From positions 60,161 to 124,160 of the forward strand of contig USFR01000004.1 of the NCBI GenBank assembly GCA_900553945.1: a stretch of 64,000 bases of DNA. Reading direction: 5' to 3'. The notes beneath the pieces are model-generated. The model was not told where the DNA came from. It made no database searches and saw only the letters and a list, made by a program, of their open reading frames with translations. Below are positions 5,601 through 56,850 of this stretch, piece by piece. Position numbers and translations under genes: made by a program. Each line of letters starts with the position of its first letter. Position 1 is the stretch's first letter. The stretch is from an uncultured Clostridium sp. Lineage in GTDB: Bacteria; Bacillota; Clostridia; TANB77; CAG-508.

Positions 5601-7499
5601 TTACTCAAGATTACAGTTACTTATGATTGTTAATCCATAAGGAGTCAGTTGCTTTTTGTTTGAATGGTTAGTTGCAAAGATTACTGGGTCGTTTGCGTAT
5701 TGCTCGGGAACAAGGATAGCCTGAGTTTGACCAGTAATGTTTACTGAAACCAAAATTCTTTTATCTTTCCATGTCCGCTCGTACATAACTATGTCGTTTG
5801 TTACAGTAATGAATCTGAAGCTTGCATTACTAAGCGGCAGTGAGTTATGGATTTTTCCTAATATTCTGTAGAAACGCATTAATTTTTTATCTCTCCGTCC
5901 CCATGGATAAGTTTTACGGTTCCATGGATCTTTGTAGCCATAGAGGCCAACTTCGTCACCATAGAAAATACACGGATTTCCGGGGAGAAAGTAGAGAATA
6001 GATAATGCTGCTTTCAAAAGCTCTCTACCTTTTTTGTAATCTGCACGTGAAAATGCTGCATCGTTTGCATTTTGCCAGTTTCGATCTTTTCCACCAATGT
6101 CCCAAGTCCATTCATAACCATTGTGCAAGAAACCATTTCCAACTAGTGTGGTGATAGCTCGTGGAATGTCATGAGTGGAAAGTGAGTTCATTGTTGATAA
6201 CAGAGCTTCTCTTGGATAATCGGCACAGATTTCATTGATATTGTTACGCAAGCAGTAGGTATCTCTGAATCGTACATACTTTAAGATTGCATTTGTGAAT
6301 GGATAGTTCATTACGCTACTGAGGGATGTGCCAAGCAGATAATTTCTGTTGCCATCATTTTTTCTAATAGCGTTTTCCCAAACTTCACCAAGAATAAATG
6401 CATCTTTTTTGTAGTGCTTTGCACAGTTAGCGAGCATTGTAAGAAAATAATCCGGAAGTTCATCTGCTACGTCTAATCGTAATCCATCGATTCCCCATTT
6501 GGTAAACCATGTATCAATTACACCGCCATCTCCAAATAAGAAGTTTTGCCACTCCTTACAGTCTGGGTTACAAACTGGAAGATTTCCAAAGCCCCACCAG
6601 TACTGGAAGTGATTGAACCGATCTCTTTTGTACCATTCAAAATATTTGGAGTCTCTGCCGCTGATTGCACCTTTTTCAGGAAATGTTGAAAGCCTGTTGA
6701 AATAAATGCTGTCATCTCCTGTATGATTGAAAACGGTATCGATGATAACCTTCATTCCAAGTGCATGAGCTCTTTGACATAAGTTTTTCATGTCTTCTGC
6801 TGAACCAAGATATGGATCGATGCTGAGATAGTCAGCTGTGTCATATCTGTGATTAGACTGGCTTCTGCAAATGGGGGAAAGGTATATGATCTTGACTCCT
6901 AATTTCTTGATGTACTTTAAATGATTTGTAATTCCTTTCAGATTACCGCAGAAAAAGTCGGTGTTTGTAATTTCGCCTCTTTCGTTGGGCATCCAGTCGG
7001 GAATGTCGTTCCAGTTCTTGTGAATGGTTCTGCGTGGCATTTCAAAAATTGGGACACTCTCGTCGCGAGCAAATCTGTCGACCATGATATGAAACATGAT
7101 TGCGCCTTTTGCCCATTCTGGAACCAAGAATGTGTTGTCAGTAACTGTGAATTGCATCCAAGGCAAATCTAATGTTGTTAAAGATAGGCCTTCTTCGTAA
7201 TTCATTTTTAAATAATATATTTTCCTGTTAAGAGTAACTTTAAAACAGTAAAAATATAGTCCAGTACCAAAGTTAAAATGGATAAAATCACTAATGAAAG
7301 TGCTCATACTATTTTTTGAACTAGTATACTTTAATGGAAATTCTTCTTTTGCTGAACTATGGTACTTCTGCAGAATTACAGTTACATCTTCAGCATATCC
7401 TAAGTCATCTGAGAGTCGTACTATGAACCGATAAGCCTTTTCTTTAGAAATCTCGTTTAATTCGGAAACCCGAATTTTTGAGTCTAAACTAACATACAT
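5601..7499 (-). CDS. glycoside hydrolase family 13 (alpha-amylase superfamily; neopullulanase/cyclomaltodextrinase-like)
   Basis: GH13 catalytic-region motifs: DTVFNHTG, GLRLDVADE, EVWE, and HD near the C-terminal part. RBS AAGGAGGG precedes ATG at 7499 (MYVSLDSK). Confidence 0.8.
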   Translation of the reverse strand: MYVSLDSKIRVSELNEISKEKAYRFIVRLSDDLGYAEDVTVILQKYHSSAKEEFPLKYTSSKNSMSTFISDFIHFNFGTGLYFYCFKVTLNRKIYYLKMNYEEGLSLTTLDLPWMQFTVTDNTFLVPEWAKGAIMFHIMVDRFARDESVPIFEMPRRTIHKNWNDIPDWMPNERGEITNTDFFCGNLKGITNHLKYIKKLGVKIIYLSPICRSQSNHRYDTADYLSIDPYLGSAEDMKNLCQRAHALGMKVIIDTVFNHTGDDSIYFNRLSTFPEKGAISGRDSKYFEWYKRDRFNHFQYWWGFGNLPVCNPDCKEWQNFLFGDGGVIDTWFTKWGIDGLRLDVADELPDYFLTMLANCAKHYKKDAFILGEVWENAIRKNDGNRNYLLGTSLSSVMNYPFTNAILKYVRFRDTYCLRNNINEICADYPREALLSTMNSLSTHDIPRAITTLVGNGFLHNGYEWTWDIGGKDRNWQNANDAAFSRADYKKGRELLKAALSILYFLPGNPCIFYGDEVGLYGYKDPWNRKTYPWGRRDKKLMRFYRILGKIHNSLPLSNASFRFITVTNDIVMYERTWKDKRILVSVNITGQTQAILVPEQYANDPVIFATNHSNKKQLTPYGLTIISNCNLE

Positions 7500-26895: not shown

Positions 26896-28653
26896 TTGAT
26901 TTTGAAGAAATGCGGTAGTGACTCAGGATATTTTAGTAAAGCGCATGGTAATTGTTTTGTTAGATTAAATGAAAATATGTATTGGCCAGTACTTTATTCT
27001 AGAGATGAACTAGCTAGTACATTTTTATCACAATTAGATACTGTATTTCATGAACTAAATCATTTCGAACAGGTTTTAAAGATGAAATCTGATAAATATG
27101 TTTCTTATAATAATTATAGAATGGCTCAGGAAGAAATTACTACATCAGATACAATATATGAAGATAATTATTGGAATATGCTACTTGAAATGGAAAGTAG
27201 ATTGGCTGGCAAAAGAAGAGTTGAAGAATTGATAAAAAGTTTAGGAGATAATTATGAATTTAAAGATTTGCTAGAGCAAAATATGGAGAGAACGGATAAA
27301 GAGGGATATATAGAAAATGTTCATGAGGTGACACCAAAATTGATACATGAAGAAGGATTTCAAGAGGGAGAAGCGGCTAGAAATCAATTATTACATGAAC
27401 GTATAGCTGGCCGTCCACAGTATTTAAAGGAATATCCAATATTAAGGTATAGATATAATGAAGATGGTTCTAGAAAAAAGATTTTGGATATTGTGAATGA
27501 TTTGTCTGAATATGCAAATGACGGGGAAAAAATAAAAATTCTTATTGAAACTCTTACAGAAGCGGTAGAGGAAGCAACAATAGATGAATTAAAAGAAGTT
27601 GAAGCAACTTATCCAGGTTCAGCAAGTTATATATATGAATTTTTATATGATGAAAATGAAATAAGATTTAAGCAAGAAAAAGAAATGATAAAGAATTTGA
27701 AGAAACAGAATTTGTTTTTTGGTACTGAAAATGATAAGTTTATTGATCAGAATTTAGAGCAAATTTTGGAGAGCAAATATAAAAGAAGATTTGAAATGCT
27801 AGAAATGTATCAAGACGGCAGATATGAGGAAGGATATGAATTAATAAATTATAATTTACAAAAAGGAGTAGATGTACCGTTAAGAGAAGATAATGTTTCA
27901 GATGTAGAGAATAATATACGTCATTTATTTGTTAGAGAAAATTTTATAGATGTGTATAATAAGACAGAGTCAGAGATAGATTTTAAAAATAGAGAATTTA
28001 ATGAGGATGTTAAAATAAGTTATGTGCTTAATGCAGTTGCAACAGGGAAGATTCCAAGTAGACTTTTTCATAGAATAGCTAGAACGTTTCCGAGATTTAC
28101 AAGAAATAATTTTAAAGAGTTAGCTGCAGTTTTTAAGGTAGCTGAGGATTTGACGTTACCTGGAGGAAAAAATTATGTGACTGAGTTATATAATATTCCA
28201 GATGTGCAGAAAATTGTGGAGAAAATGTTTGAATCTGATGTATATAAGGAAATTGTTGAAGAAAGCAAGTTAAGTTCACAACCAGAGAGAAAAACTCAAT
28301 TGGATTTGGATTATGAGATAGCAGATGAGTATTTACGTTACTTAGAATCTCCAGAAGATGAATTGAGTGAGTATGTGACAAATGATATTCCTACGATAGG
28401 TGAGAATGTGCCAGAAGCGGATAAGGCGATGTGGAAAATTACAACGATTCAAAAAGGATATTTAGTATCAGTTGAAGATGGGGATTGGGCAAGAAGCAGA
28501 GAACCGGTGTATTTAAAAAGTAGAAGAGATTTGATAATGGAAGATGCTGTTAGAGAAGCGATAAGAAGAAATGTTTCTTTTAATCAAGTGCAGGGTGTTA
28601 ATTTTAAAGAGGAACAAACACAAAATAAAGAAGGAGTTGATCAAGATGACTAG
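26896..28653 (+). CDS. hypothetical protein with HExxH motif (HELNH); same frame as 26695 ORF
   Basis: 585-aa ORF with an acidic C-terminus. The only start at 26896 is TTG, with no RBS. Confidence 0.45.
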   Translation: MILKKCGSDSGYFSKAHGNCFVRLNENMYWPVLYSRDELASTFLSQLDTVFHELNHFEQVLKMKSDKYVSYNNYRMAQEEITTSDTIYEDNYWNMLLEMESRLAGKRRVEELIKSLGDNYEFKDLLEQNMERTDKEGYIENVHEVTPKLIHEEGFQEGEAARNQLLHERIAGRPQYLKEYPILRYRYNEDGSRKKILDIVNDLSEYANDGEKIKILIETLTEAVEEATIDELKEVEATYPGSASYIYEFLYDENEIRFKQEKEMIKNLKKQNLFFGTENDKFIDQNLEQILESKYKRRFEMLEMYQDGRYEEGYELINYNLQKGVDVPLREDNVSDVENNIRHLFVRENFIDVYNKTESEIDFKNREFNEDVKISYVLNAVATGKIPSRLFHRIARTFPRFTRNNFKELAAVFKVAEDLTLPGGKNYVTELYNIPDVQKIVEKMFESDVYKEIVEESKLSSQPERKTQLDLDYEIADEYLRYLESPEDELSEYVTNDIPTIGENVPEADKAMWKITTIQKGYLVSVEDGDWARSREPVYLKSRRDLIMEDAVREAIRRNVSFNQVQGVNFKEEQTQNKEGVDQDD

Positions 28654-30727: not shown

Positions 30728-30839
30728 AGGAATAGGTTATATATTTGATGATAAGAGTTGTTTTGAAAATGAATTATATGTGTAGAGAATTGATTTATAA
30801 AAATAGTTGAAAATATAAAAAAATAAGAAGACTCATAAC

Positions 30840-30884
30840 TCGAAGGTCGTAAGTTCGAGTCCTGCCTTCGCAACCAACGAAATT
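30840..30884 (+). other. 3' tRNA fragment (T-arm + acceptor 3' strand + ACCA): probable att-site remnant of an integrated island
   Basis: CGAAG|GTC|GTAAG-TTCGAGT-CCTGC|CTTCGCA-A-CCA. T-loop TTCGAGT. The acceptor strand partly pairs with upstream CGAAG. No D-arm or anticodon arm. Confidence 0.45.
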
Positions 30885-31005
30885 ATTAGAGTCGCAAGAG
30901 ATTGAAGACCAATTATTTTTGGCGTGAAAGTTTGAGAGTATTAAAAATACTATAAAAATATGGAAATAATTTGCTTTTTCGGATATAATTCAAAAGAATA
31001 AATAT

Positions 31006-32079
31006 TTGGGGGTGAATATTATTAAAAAGACTACTACAGAATATAGAGAATGGAAGAAACGAAACGATGTAAAAAAACAGAGAAACAGAGCAAAACACAA
31101 AAAGAAAAAAAGTAATAATAGTTATTCAATTAGTAACAAAAGTTCTACGTTTCAACCGTATAAAACATTTACAGTTCCACAAGTATTTAGTATAATAGAA
31201 AATCCAGAGCAAACTATAAAATTTTTTAATTCGATATTAGAAATAATTGAAAAGATACGAAAAATGGTTAAGCAAAGAAAAAATAAGCAATCTATGTATT
31301 TTTTCAGAATTGATATGAAAGAAGTAAAAAAGATTACAGGAGATGCTTTAATGTATTTACTGACAGTAATAAAAAATACGAGAGGTAAGAAGAGTCTTCC
31401 TGTAAATTGGATAGGAAATTTTCCAAAAGATATGGAAATAAGAGAATTTCTACAAGCATCTGGTTATTTAGAATATATGAAAACTGATAAAAAAAATTTA
31501 ATAAAAACTAATGAGAAAATACAAATAAGAACAGGAAAAAATTATGTATATGCAGATAATAAAGACATTAGAAAAGAAGTTGTTGATTTTACAGTTGAAA
31601 AGTTAAATAAAAATAAAAAAGAAATGTTATTTCTATTTAATATATTGACTGAAGTTATCACTAATATAGAACATGCATATAATATAAAAGATGATTTGAT
31701 CTTTGACCCATCTTGGTATATAATGGTAGAAAATAATTTTGATAAAATAAAATATACTTTTATGGATAACGGCTTAGGAATACCAACAACTGTTAAGAAA
31801 AAAGCATTTGAGGAAATATTAAAGAAGTTTAATATAGATACAGAATATAAATATATAAAATCAGCTTTAGATGGGTCATATAAAAGAACTCAAACAGAAA
31901 AAAGAGAAAGAAGTACAGGATTACCAGATGTTTATGAAAAACTAAAGAATAAAAAGATATGTAATTTAATTATAATTTCAAATAGTGCATATTATTGCGA
32001 AGATAATCCGAGGGATATTAATGAAAATTTAATTGGAACAATTATATGTTGGGAAATAAAAAAGGAGAAGAGTGTATGA
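31006..32079 (+). CDS. GHKL-superfamily (HATPase_c-like) ATPase
   Basis: N-box-like LTEVITNIEHA, G1 box DNGLGIP, G2-like RSTGLPDV. The start is uncertain (TTG at 31006; internal Met candidates). The stop overlaps the next ATG (ATGA). Confidence 0.55.
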   Translation: MGVNIIKKTTTEYREWKKRNDVKKQRNRAKHKKKKSNNSYSISNKSSTFQPYKTFTVPQVFSIIENPEQTIKFFNSILEIIEKIRKMVKQRKNKQSMYFFRIDMKEVKKITGDALMYLLTVIKNTRGKKSLPVNWIGNFPKDMEIREFLQASGYLEYMKTDKKNLIKTNEKIQIRTGKNYVYADNKDIRKEVVDFTVEKLNKNKKEMLFLFNILTEVITNIEHAYNIKDDLIFDPSWYIMVENNFDKIKYTFMDNGLGIPTTVKKKAFEEILKKFNIDTEYKYIKSALDGSYKRTQTEKRERSTGLPDVYEKLKNKKICNLIIISNSAYYCEDNPRDINENLIGTIICWEIKKEKSV

Positions 32080-32411
32080 TAATAAAAATAGCAGAAGATT
32101 ATACAGAAACACCAGGAGCTAGATATTATGAGCAAGGACCATTTCCTGGGGAAGAATTTAGAGATAAATATTTATATCCAAAATATTTAGAGTGCTTAGA
32201 AAAAAAAGAAGAGCTTATTGTTGATTTAGACGGGGGGTATGGATATGGTTCATCTTTTTTAGAGGAAGCTTTTGGAGGATTAATTAGAAGATTAAAAAAA
32301 GAAGATAAAGAATATAAACCAGCACTAAAATTAATAAAAATTATTTCTAATGACGAGACATCATGGATAGAAAAAATAGATGGATATATGAAAGCAGAAA
32401 TAAATGTATAA
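32076..32411 (+). CDS. small STAS-like (DUF4325-type) protein, translationally coupled to the GHKL ATPase
   Basis: AAAGGAGAAG RBS, then ATG at 32076 overlapping the upstream TGA. The ~111-aa protein reads MIIKIAEDYTETPGARYY...IVDLDGGYGYGSSFLEEAFGG. Family assignment is from memory, not verified. Confidence 0.45.
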   Translation: MIIKIAEDYTETPGARYYEQGPFPGEEFRDKYLYPKYLECLEKKEELIVDLDGGYGYGSSFLEEAFGGLIRRLKKEDKEYKPALKLIKIISNDETSWIEKIDGYMKAEINV

Positions 32412-32424
32412 GTAGGGGGATAAG

Positions 32425-32961
32425 ATGAAGAATGCATGGAAAGTATTAGCTATTGTAGGAATAATAGTAATTTTTATAGTATTATCTGTAATTAGTTGTA
32501 TTTGTAATGGAATGTCTGAATTTTTTTCATTTAATTTAGTTGAGATATTAACATTAGGAATAGCTTCTATATTAATATATTATTTAACAGAAAAGAATAA
32601 TGATAAAAGAAAGAAAAATGAAAAAATAGAAAATCTAATAATAGAAATAAGTTCAAAATTAAATAGCATTTCTCTACAGATACCTTCAAAAGGAAAACAA
32701 AAAGAGTATTTATATTGCTTTAAATATATATCTAATAAATTCAATGTTCTAAAATTATTGATTGAAAAAGATGACGAAAGAAATTTGGAAAATGCAGAAA
32801 AAGAATTTGAAAATCTAAGAGTGTTTATAACTGATAATATTAATCAAGATGAATCATATTTTGAAAATTTAAAAGATAAAATACCTAACTATGTTAGTAA
32901 TATAGATACATTTCTAGATAAGATAATCGTTAACATATATAAGCAAAATAGTAGCAAATAA
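32425..32961 (+). CDS. membrane protein with one N-terminal TM helix and coiled-coil tail
   Basis: AWKVLAIVGIIVIFIVLSVISCIC TM segment. 14 nt downstream of the STAS-like gene. Terminator hairpin tagtagca/tgctacta plus T run at 32946-32985. Confidence 0.45.
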   Translation: MKNAWKVLAIVGIIVIFIVLSVISCICNGMSEFFSFNLVEILTLGIASILIYYLTEKNNDKRKKNEKIENLIIEISSKLNSISLQIPSKGKQKEYLYCFKYISNKFNVLKLLIEKDDERNLENAEKEFENLRVFITDNINQDESYFENLKDKIPNYVSNIDTFLDKIIVNIYKQNSSK

Positions 32962-55430: not shown

Positions 55431-56630
55431 ATGGAGAGAAAGTTTTTACATATTGATGTTAATAATGCTTTTTTGTCTTGGACTGCGGTTGATAGGTTGA
55501 AGAAGGGCGATAGGGTTGATTTGAGAACGATTCCAGCGGTTATTGGTGGTGATGAGGCTAAGCGTCATGGGATTGTTGTTGCTAAGAGTAATGTTGCTAA
55601 AAAGTTTGGCATTCAAACTGCTGAGCCTTTGTACATGGCGAGGAGAAAGTGTCCAAGTATAATTGTTATTCCAGGTGATTTTGATCTTTATAGAAGTTGT
55701 TCAAATAAACTATATAAGCTTTTTTTAGAGTATACGGAGAAGGTGGAAAGGTTTTCAATTGATGAGTGTTTTTTAGATTTGACTGAATATTTGAAACCTG
55801 GTGTGGATTTGATTAAGCTTGGTATCGAGATTAAAGAACGTGTAAAAAAAGAGTTTGGATTTACTGTTAATGTTGGTGTTTCTGATGATAAGATTTTGGC
55901 TAAGATTGCTTCTGATTTTGAGAAGCCTGATAAGATTCATACGTTATTTAAGTCGGAGATTAAGGATAAATTGTGGAGATTGCCCGTTTCTGAGATGTTT
56001 TTAGTCGGTAAGAAATCAATTCCTAAGTTGAATAGAATGGGGATAAGGACTGTTGGAGATTTGGCTAATACTGATAAAGCTGTTTTAATAAAAGAGTTTG
56101 GAAAGTATGGATATACTATTTGGAAATATGCAAATGGGGAGAGTGGCGAGGAGGTAAATTATTTACCTGAAAAGCCTAAAGGTATTGGAAATAGTATAAC
56201 TTTGCCATATGATGTTGCTTCTTTAGATGAGCTTGAGGTTACGTTGGTTGAATTGGTTGAGAAGGTTTCTTATAGATTAAGAAAAGAAAATATGTATGCG
56301 ACTGTTGTGAATGTTCAGCTTAAAAATAATAATTTTAAAAGTTATTCTCATCAGAAGAAGTTAATGGGGAGAACTGATTCGACGAGTGAGATTTTGAGTG
56401 TTGCGAAAGAGCTTTTGAAGGAGTTGTTTATTGGTGAGCCAATTAGGTTAATTGGTGTTAGGGCTGATGGTTTGGTTGAAAAAGAGGAGATGCAACTTTC
56501 AATTTTTGATATGAAGGAAGATTCTAAGAATAAAAAATTGGATGATACTATGGATAAGTTGAAGGATAAGTTCGGTTATAATATTCTTACTAGAGCTACG
56601 GAATTGAAGGGGAATATGAAGTCGGAATGA
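55431..56630 (+). CDS. Y-family DNA polymerase (DinB/Pol IV-like)
   Basis: HIDVNNAFLSW active-site region (D..F). Fingers/palm/little-finger length. The ATG at 55389 lies only ~9 nt after the -10, so the ATG at 55431 (MERKF) is preferred. Confidence 0.75.
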   Translation: MERKFLHIDVNNAFLSWTAVDRLKKGDRVDLRTIPAVIGGDEAKRHGIVVAKSNVAKKFGIQTAEPLYMARRKCPSIIVIPGDFDLYRSCSNKLYKLFLEYTEKVERFSIDECFLDLTEYLKPGVDLIKLGIEIKERVKKEFGFTVNVGVSDDKILAKIASDFEKPDKIHTLFKSEIKDKLWRLPVSEMFLVGKKSIPKLNRMGIRTVGDLANTDKAVLIKEFGKYGYTIWKYANGESGEEVNYLPEKPKGIGNSITLPYDVASLDELEVTLVELVEKVSYRLRKENMYATVVNVQLKNNNFKSYSHQKKLMGRTDSTSEILSVAKELLKELFIGEPIRLIGVRADGLVEKEEMQLSIFDMKEDSKNKKLDDTMDKLKDKFGYNILTRATELKGNMKSE

Positions 56631-56850
56631 TATAGAATCATAGAATTAAAGAGTGATATGAAATCTGAATAATTTAGAATCATAGAATTAAAGAGCAATA
56701 TGAAATCTGAATAATTTAGAATTATAGAATTAAAGAAAATATGAATGTGAATATTCTAAATCTGCAGAGTTAAAAGGTAATATAAAATATAATGATTTAT
56801 AGTTACAGAACTAGAAGGGTAACATAAAACCTGAATAATCATATAATATA
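56596..56850 (+). repeat. tandem degenerate duplications (~42-bp unit, ~5 copies) of the 3' end of the polymerase gene
   Basis: GAATTGAAGGGGAATATGAAGTCGGAATGA (gene end) is followed by GAATCATAGAATTAAAGAGTGATATGAAATCTGAATAA x2, then decayed copies. Confidence 0.7.

Follow-up and report, generated by a model that had tools for sequence, protein, structure and literature searches.

The question raised by this locus is how 45 nt of a tRNA came to stand between a conserved gene set and a block of defence genes, and what they delimit. The window (the whole stretch of DNA analysed here, 64 kb) was examined around this fragment and compared with related contigs and with species-representative genomes; the features are collected in Table 1.

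The tRNA-like fragment and its neighbourhood

The fragment is the 3′ half of a tRNA of the fMet type. The initial annotation had described a T arm, an acceptor 3′ strand and a terminal CCA, and these were correctly read; its statement that no anticodon arm is present does not hold, as the anticodon loop and the 3′ strand of the anticodon stem are both there. The T stem pairs with one A-C mismatch and one T-G wobble. Immediately 5′ of the fragment the DNA reads AAAAATAAGAAGA, not TCGGG, and no tRNA 5′ half precedes it. No tRNA was called at 30832-30876 by ARAGORN on the 64-kb window, nor by Rfam at the gathering threshold; when the stretch was excised so that 5′ truncation was allowed, the fragment aligned to positions 29-71 of the Rfam tRNA model with 15.7 bits (E=0.24; gathering score 29). 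A complete cloverleaf is lacking, and the fragment is not a functional tRNA-fMet gene. Among the matches listed from other genomes (see below), it is identical at 40 of 45 positions to the commonest 3′ half of genuine Clostridia tRNA-fMet genes and at 42 of 45 to the closest variants, all three differences from the latter being transitions; its 3′ end is also borne by genuine tRNA-fMet genes in many gut Clostridia. Two further Rfam matches in the intergenic region, mir-1285 and CRISPR-DR36 (the latter inside the loop of the terminator remnant), were at chance level and were discarded.

As the initial annotation had stated, no intact tRNA matching the fragment exists in the window: six tRNAs were called by ARAGORN, namely three for Gly (4.3-5.5 kb) and one each for Val, Asp and Phe (23.2-23.5 kb), and tRNA-Met was not found anywhere in the 64 kb. 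The Val/Asp/Phe cluster was considered as the intact partner and ruled out, the sequences being unrelated. A 32-mer of the fragment occurs once in the window (0 expected by chance), and no second full copy of it was found there.

The gene map also bears out the earlier placement of the fragment between a conserved gene set and the defence genes. To its left lies a purine-rich four-gene set (26.9-30.7 kb) with raised GC and GC skew, which encodes proteins of 583 and 145 aa, a HIT-domain protein and a 298-aa protein; PADLOC and NCBIfam gave no match for these four genes, and the HIT domain was their sole Pfam match. The 583-aa gene (26902-28653) varies among strains, with a product of 583/585 aa, of 488 aa, or split into 108 + 402 aa (compared with contigs L003, L004, L005 and L009).

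To the right of the defence genes, a type I-B cas operon starts at 39.38 kb and is followed by a CRISPR array at about 47.7-48.6 kb. The regular part of the array (47704-48252) consists of about nine copies of a 30-nt repeat, GTATTAATTTAAATATATTAGAATGTAAAT, spaced at 65-67 nt, and a degenerate copy lies near 48543-48572; the array at 47704-48252 was not reported by Tandem Repeats Finder. Farther to the right, a gene of the choloylglycine (bile-salt) hydrolase family (51003-51977) fits a gut-dwelling host, as does the human-gut origin of the related contigs, and about six copies of a 42-nt tandem repeat occupy the intergenic DNA 3′ of a DinB-like polymerase gene (56590-56840).

Table 1. Coordinates of the island, its ends and its flanks in the window
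Feature	Position	Strand	Details
Chromosomal left flank, intergenic, 3′ of the 298-aa gene	30728-30831	+	ends ...AAATAAGAAGA; unchanged up to the core in 8 of 8 aligned contigs
tRNA-fMet-type 3′ half, 5′ half absent	30832-30876	+	45 nt; CTCATAACTCGAAGGTCGTAAGTTCGAGTCCTGCCTTCGCAACCA
Left att core	30832-30847	+	CTCATAACTCGAAGGT; anticodon loop, 3′ anticodon stem and start of variable loop of tRNA-fMet
Anticodon loop and 3′ strand of anticodon stem	inside 30832-30876	+	CTCATAA, anticodon CAT
Short variable loop, between anticodon stem 3′ strand and T arm	inside 30832-30876	+	
T stem, 5′ strand	30849-30853	+	GTAAG
T loop	30854-30860	+	TTCGAGT
T stem, 3′ strand	30861-30865	+	CCTGC
Acceptor 3′ strand, discriminator, CCA	CCA at 30874-30876	+	CTTCGCA, then A, then CCA
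Terminator hairpin, decayed, element-borne	30888-30920	+	AGAGTC-GCAAGAGATTGAA-GACCAA-TTATTTTT; in relatives AGAGTC...GACTCT, then T run
Left cargo	31012-32961	+	355-aa protein (phrog_3364), 121-aa DUF4325/STAS-like, 178-aa protein
Backbone scrap	32930-33001	+	terminator hairpin (TAGTAGCA...TGCTACTA + T run) and last bases of a minus-strand 292-aa gene
Right cargo	33354-38553	+	Dam-family MTase, TdeIII-family REase, HNH nuclease (type IV-like), Mrr-like nuclease, 296-aa (phrog_4672), 182-aa
Pseudogene of conserved 97-aa right-end gene	38600-38893	-	in-frame TGA at 38789-38791
Two direct arm-type repeats	38989-39006	+	GGGGACAcaatGGGGACA; 1 found vs 0 expected
Core-proximal arm, conserved	39093-39126	+	ATTTCAATAAAATTCAAAAA...; aligned to Clostridia element right ends
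Right att core (attR)	39127-39142	+	CTCATAACCCGAAGGT, 16 bp, then non-tRNA chromosomal DNA
Chromosomal right flank common to the empty-site contig	39143-39203	+	L142 vs window 39127-39203: 94.8%

Island limits and the unoccupied site

A 16-bp partner of the left end of the fragment was revealed by short-word BLAST together with a core search. Allowing up to three mismatches, the core CTCATAACCCGAAGGT has two copies only in the window, in direct orientation (0.22 expected); an 11-mer of the core with at most one mismatch likewise has two (0.13 expected; 0 of 100 shuffles gave two). No copy lies between 30832 and 39142, even with mismatches allowed, and none to the left of the fragment in the window. 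The left core differs from the right core and from the chromosomal site described below by one mismatch, a T at position 9 where the other copies have C, and among the contigs compared this T is confined to the island type of the window.

Related contigs were collected via the 298-aa protein, which is encoded on many gut-metagenome contigs, and a metagenome scan with the left flank added more (L140-L143 also contain this flank). Aligned 3′ of the 298-aa gene, these contigs are identical as far as ...AAGAAGACTCATAAC and divergent beyond; past CTCATAAC, the left flank continues into at least three unrelated sequences, with two more types from the metagenome scan. On the other side, the right flank is conserved starting exactly at CTCATAACCCGAAGGT in L012, L015 and L018, despite their differing left contents. 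Because conservation among strains stops and starts exactly at the two cores, the island is limited to 30832-39142, about 8.3 kb between two direct cores.

A gut-metagenome contig, L142, contains the site unoccupied, the left flank, the 16-bp core and the right flank being joined directly: AAGAAGA-CTCATAACCCGAAGGT-ATATAGAATAAGG, or in a longer reading ...AAAAATAAGAAGA-CTCATAACCCGAAGGT-ATATAGAATAAGGAAAAGTATAG..., with AAGAAGACTCATAACCCGAAGGTATATG as the attB junction. Neither a T arm nor an acceptor is present in this contig, no tRNA was called at the junction, and nothing of the fragment is found beyond AGGT. The evidence for the empty site is this one contig, which is also devoid of the cas locus and so comes from a somewhat different strain background. 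Since the empty site has the core alone, everything from 30848 on is element-borne (attP side). Judged from these sequences, the chromosomal attB lies in non-tRNA intergenic DNA and mimics the tRNA-fMet anticodon arm over 16 bp. The minimal block common to attL, attR and attB is CTCATAACCCG, and in every junction its first base is that of the anticodon loop; the identity shared by the att sites is centred on this loop, as in the 'A' sublocation of tDNA integration.

The initial annotation had seen in the fragment an integrase-site relic at an island junction, left there as a displaced tRNA 3′ end, and had proposed a comparison with strains lacking the island. The comparison is provided by L142. 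The relic and the junction stand, the fragment being the left boundary where the contigs diverge; a displaced chromosomal 3′ end does not, as L142 has the core only. The partner copy and the integrase, which had been expected elsewhere, fared less well: the partner lies inside the window, at the point where right-flank conservation begins, and tblastn with five related integrases found no tyrosine-recombinase remnant in the 64 kb, integrases at this site being present only in other strains.

Two further differences among strains were observed close to the right core. In L142 (1-700, minus orientation), the 77-bp right flank leads directly into a SAM riboswitch and metK, the CRISPR-Cas locus being absent; no SAM riboswitch was found in the window. 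As the right flank of L142 enters this riboswitch instead, the cas operon and the DNA past 39203 form a second strain-variable segment that abuts the att hot spot. In L016, L017 and L019, a different insertion about 130 bp upstream of cas6 (window equivalent ~39249) replaces the att region and adjoins a 360-aa HTH_38-containing gene, possibly an IS30-like transposase.

Decay of the island, its family and other occupants of the site

The contents of the island carry several marks of decay. No terminator was detected at 30888-30920, in a region that is 82-86% identical over about 90-100 nt to the DNA 3′ of at least 15 intact or half Clostridia tRNA-fMet copies, and the left arm repeats that follow the terminator in relatives are absent 3′ of the decayed terminator in the window island. 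Between the two cargo blocks, the 72-nt backbone scrap shares 89% identity with L119 (5942-6014) over 73 nt and 97% with L071 over 34 nt; the remainder of the 292-aa backbone gene, which is found in both of these contigs, is gone from the window. The in-frame TGA of the right-end pseudogene and the T at position 9 of the left core are further marks of this kind. No Pfam recombinase was found among the island ORFs. The island is a decayed element, and is probably immobile.

At the head of the island (31012-32411), the 355-aa gene, which has no Pfam match, overlaps the DUF4325/STAS-like gene; this could be an uncharacterised defence pair. Neither the 355-aa/DUF4325/178-aa genes nor the 296-aa/182-aa genes were matched by PADLOC or NCBIfam.

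The right-end module at 38597-39142 shares 73-78% identity with element right ends in L012, L013, L080, L139, L079 and L032. Aligned with one another, these ends show two arm repeats, placed some 120-138 bp ahead of the core, as well as a conserved ATTTCAATAAAGTTCAAAAA box. Relatives have pairs of TTGGGGACA, TTGGGTAAAA or TTGGGGAAAAG equally far from the core, and such repeats also stand beside integrases at left ends. The arm repeats of the window are putative integrase arm-binding sites.

When species-representative genomes were scanned with the degenerate 45-mer, at least 120 stretches were found, mostly in gut Clostridia MAGs. In roughly half of the matches listed, the 45-mer belongs to an intact tRNA-fMet as its 3′ half (CGCGGGGTGGAGCAGTTGGCAGCTCGTCGGG + CTCATAA...); the remaining listed matches are half-only copies, in which foreign upstream DNA stops exactly at CTCATAA, and a half copy that begins at this point is the hallmark of an att repeat of the anticodon-loop kind. 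Half-tRNA copies in tandem are frequent at the listed Clostridia loci. At 15 or more loci, ..TTTTATTAGAGTCGCAAGAGATTGTGGACTCTTATTTTTT, a hairpin with a T run, stands 3′ of the CCA; because it is present after intact and half copies alike, the hairpin with its T run is element DNA. The motif TTATTAGAGTCGCAAGAGATTG..GACTCTTATTTTTT, of which the window keeps a degraded copy, follows intact and half copies, and is succeeded by arm repeats and then by a minus-strand integrase. For example, in L119, where the terminator folds as a hairpin, and in L071, two arm-type direct repeats (of the GGGGACA or GGGCAC type) lie 3′ of the terminator and precede the minus-strand integrase. At their other end, the right arm at Clostridia loci leads into the core plus a T arm (of a true tRNA or of the next tandem element), and in the species of the window into the core plus ATATG.

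Viral collections were searched as well. The terminator motif of the element had no match in IMG/VR, and no excised or packaged form was seen; integrase matches in phage collections were all at or below 44% identity. Two higher-GC faecal virome contigs carry an analogous half/intact tRNA-fMet and were set aside as uninformative on the window element.

At least five different islands occupy this site in other strains. At the left junction three classes can be distinguished: (a) the window type (L001 and L010); (b) a canonical class (L002, L006, L008 and also L007), in which a perfectly paired half tRNA, CTCATAACCCGAAGGTCGTAAGTTCGAGTCTTACCCCCGCAACCA, is followed by TTGGGTAAAA direct repeats and then by a minus-strand 397-aa tyrosine integrase; and (c) a short-core class (L003, L004, L005 and L009), in which CTCATAACCCG is directly followed by unrelated DNA, GGGGACA repeats and a 391-aa integrase. 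The left-flank metagenome scan added two more half-tRNA variants (L140 and L141), a class (c) contig (L143) and the unoccupied site. Among contigs that encode the same Cas6, the contents to the left of the right core differ entirely: L012 and L013 have a Fic/reverse-transcriptase island, and L015 has an HTH_17 gene together with a plus-strand integrase of 398 aa. The integrases at this site are thus of 391, 397 or 398 aa; the occupied strains also encode an excisionase-like HTH_17 protein, a replisome organizer and a DnaC-like loader, and their cargo at the site includes ApeA/HEPN, DUF2326 with MC6/MC7, type I R-M, SAVED, RT and Fic.

The integrases of L002, L003, L119 and L071 share 51-64% mutual identity. 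That of L015 (783-2100) is ~26% identical to the others, and its gene, at the right end of the element, points toward attR; given this low identity and the opposite position, at least two integrase lineages use the core. The arm sequence of L015, AAAGGCTTTCYTTAAAAAACTTTCTGTC, is also present in the Clostridia MAG L040.

In L003 (about 7010-7030) and L143 (9204-9214), attP has lost its tRNA 3′ half and the junction reads CTCATAACCCG|TTGAAATC... The arm region of this type, GTGGGGACAATTTGGGGACAGTCCC, is nearly identical to that of the Clostridia elements L105 and L118, which keep the half tRNA and the terminator.

Origin of the island and its place among known systems

The segment 30832-39142 is very probably a decayed, integrase-less island of the tRNA-fMet-type family, with defence genes of the restriction type, inserted at a 16-bp non-tRNA look-alike of its usual target. 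This reading is carried by the two cores, the empty site, the integrase-bearing occupants of the same site, the homology of both end modules to elements at genuine tRNA-fMet genes, the decay marks and the lack of an integrase. In the mechanism that we propose, the tyrosine integrases of this family, which is widespread in gut Clostridia, would recombine in the anticodon-loop region of tRNA-fMet genes, and attP would carry, beside the core, a replacement tRNA 3′ half and a terminator hairpin; as attP brings this replacement half, a split tRNA gene would be rebuilt on integration. With the intergenic look-alike as target, attL would have the order chromosome, core, element tRNA 3′ half, and attR the order element arm, core, chromosome; attL would imitate a tRNA fragment because the target is no tRNA gene. 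Strand exchange would have taken place within CTCATAAC (anticodon loop), to the left of position 9, if the T/C difference between the cores is taken as a guide, although the T may instead be a post-integration mutation. After integration, the integrase, the left arm repeats and the excision/replication backbone would have been lost and the right-end gene would have gained its nonsense mutation, an order of events that we infer. What is left is presumably a fixed cargo block, mobilisable in cis at best, by a co-resident relative.

The shared family features and the GGGGACA arm type suggest that attL and attR of the window descend from one ancestral element; an intact relative of exactly this island with both ends, or a circular attP, was on no single contig examined. 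A less probable reading, which keeps some weight, is that the 8.3-kb block is the remains of at least two tandem-accreted elements, with attL and attR from different ones and deletion of the att sites, integrases and backbones that lay inside. Several kinds of element occupy this hot spot, Clostridia loci often have half-tRNA copies in tandem, and accretion followed by decay is a described route (PMC5704250); moreover, with no left arm repeats to go by, the arm type of the left end cannot be compared with that of the right. However, not even a mismatched core copy is left inside the block, and while the backbone scrap does divide the cargo into two, intact relatives (L002 and L119) also have their backbone gene between two cargo slots, so that one element with internal deletions accounts equally well for the layout.

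It is highly improbable that the fragment represents the original 3′ end of a chromosomal tRNA, now displaced (an attR-type direct repeat), with the intact tRNA and the integrase beyond the window at the far end of a large island. In favour of this, tDNA fragments usually originate in this manner (PMC4383910), the window is without tRNA-Met, and the orientation would put the island leftward, where GC and skew are higher in the 26.9-30.7 kb set. Against it, the empty site has neither T arm nor acceptor, and the left gene set and flank are kept in every contig, whatever comes next. Furthermore, the DNA after the CCA is the element-type terminator, not chromosomal flank, and the partner core lies 8.3 kb to the right, with none on the left side in the window. 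That the fragment is a chromosomal tRNA-fMet pseudogene in decay, or resembles a tRNA by chance, with no connection to site-specific recombination, has a close to negligible probability: the transition-type differences and the mispaired T stem do suggest absent selection, but 42/45 identity is not chance, and the fragment starts exactly at the point of strain divergence, is missing from the empty site and is succeeded by an element-specific terminator.

With a decayed island of the tRNA-fMet-type family as the preferred reading, one extension can be considered, though it is improbable: the 16-bp site may be a selected 'landing pad', a decoy attB beside CRISPR-Cas that captures tRNA-fMet-targeting elements with their defence cargo and spares the essential tRNA-fMet genes. 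Elements of the L003/L143 type could then already have shed from their attP a tRNA half that had become useless.

Integration into tDNA at the anticodon loop, tandem accretion and decay are already known; the mild twist here is that a non-tRNA target is used recurrently as a hot spot. The spare half-tRNA belonging to the element was stranded at such a target, and a tRNA-like fragment need therefore not be chromosomal. This has relevance to tRNA annotation, in which false positives from half-tRNAs are a recognised problem (cf. PMC9897764). Exact limits of the defence island, 30832 and 39142, were obtained; island-finding tools of the kind that requires an intact tDNA partner would miss it. In this human-gut bacterium the locus also amounts to a natural catalogue of defence cargo that can be exchanged.

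Among known systems, the closest are the islands and prophages that integrate into tDNA with an anticodon-loop crossover, the 'A' sublocation reportedly described by Williams in 2002. They and the present family share tyrosine-family integrases, a core in the anticodon-loop region, an element-borne tRNA 3′ half that regenerates the gene, direct half-tRNA repeats at the ends, tandem arrays, and an integrase beside the regenerated tRNA end that reads toward it. The window copy is unlike them in being without an integrase and in its target, a 16-bp non-tRNA look-alike, which leaves nothing to regenerate and no intact tDNA at either end. Islander (PMC4383910) describes restoration of the split tDNA by islands, with crossovers centred on the anticodon; of the features that define an island there, the window has the tDNA-fragment direct repeat in the correct orientation, and has neither an intact regenerated tDNA at one end nor an integrase inside.

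CIMEs (cis-mobilizable elements) are decayed derivatives of ICEs or IMEs that keep attL and attR without integration and transfer genes and take part in accretion at att sites (PMC5704250). Like them, the window island has two flanking att cores and no recombinase or mobility genes, lies at a site where relatives integrate, and is the relic of a complete element, as its degraded terminator, nonsense-mutated right-end gene and backbone scrap testify. The parent elements, by contrast, look like phages or satellites, with an integrase, an Xis-like HTH, a replisome organizer and a DnaC-like loader, and not like conjugative elements; as the left arm repeats are gone and the left core is mismatched, even cis-mobilisation is doubtful. 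No contig with this island in tandem with an integrase-bearing element was recovered.

PICI-like phage satellites combine an integrase, a regulator/excisionase and a replication module with genes that hijack helper packaging. The occupants of this site resemble them, and defence islands at hot spots in general, in a variable defence cargo (including R-M, HNH and Mrr) on a fixed backbone at one chromosomal spot. In the intact relatives, which are candidate satellites, the integrase, the Xis-like HTH_17, the replisome organizer and the DnaC-like loader were found; no packaging or capsid-interference genes were seen in the ~10 kb covered, nor did IMG/VR yield a motif match.

Secondary (pseudo-)attachment sites are short sequences that resemble the core of attB and lie outside the normal target gene, a description that the present site shares. 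It differs from them in matching the 16-bp tRNA-fMet core perfectly and in its use by at least two distant integrase lineages and at least five elements; its behaviour is that of a regular hot spot rather than of a rare secondary site.
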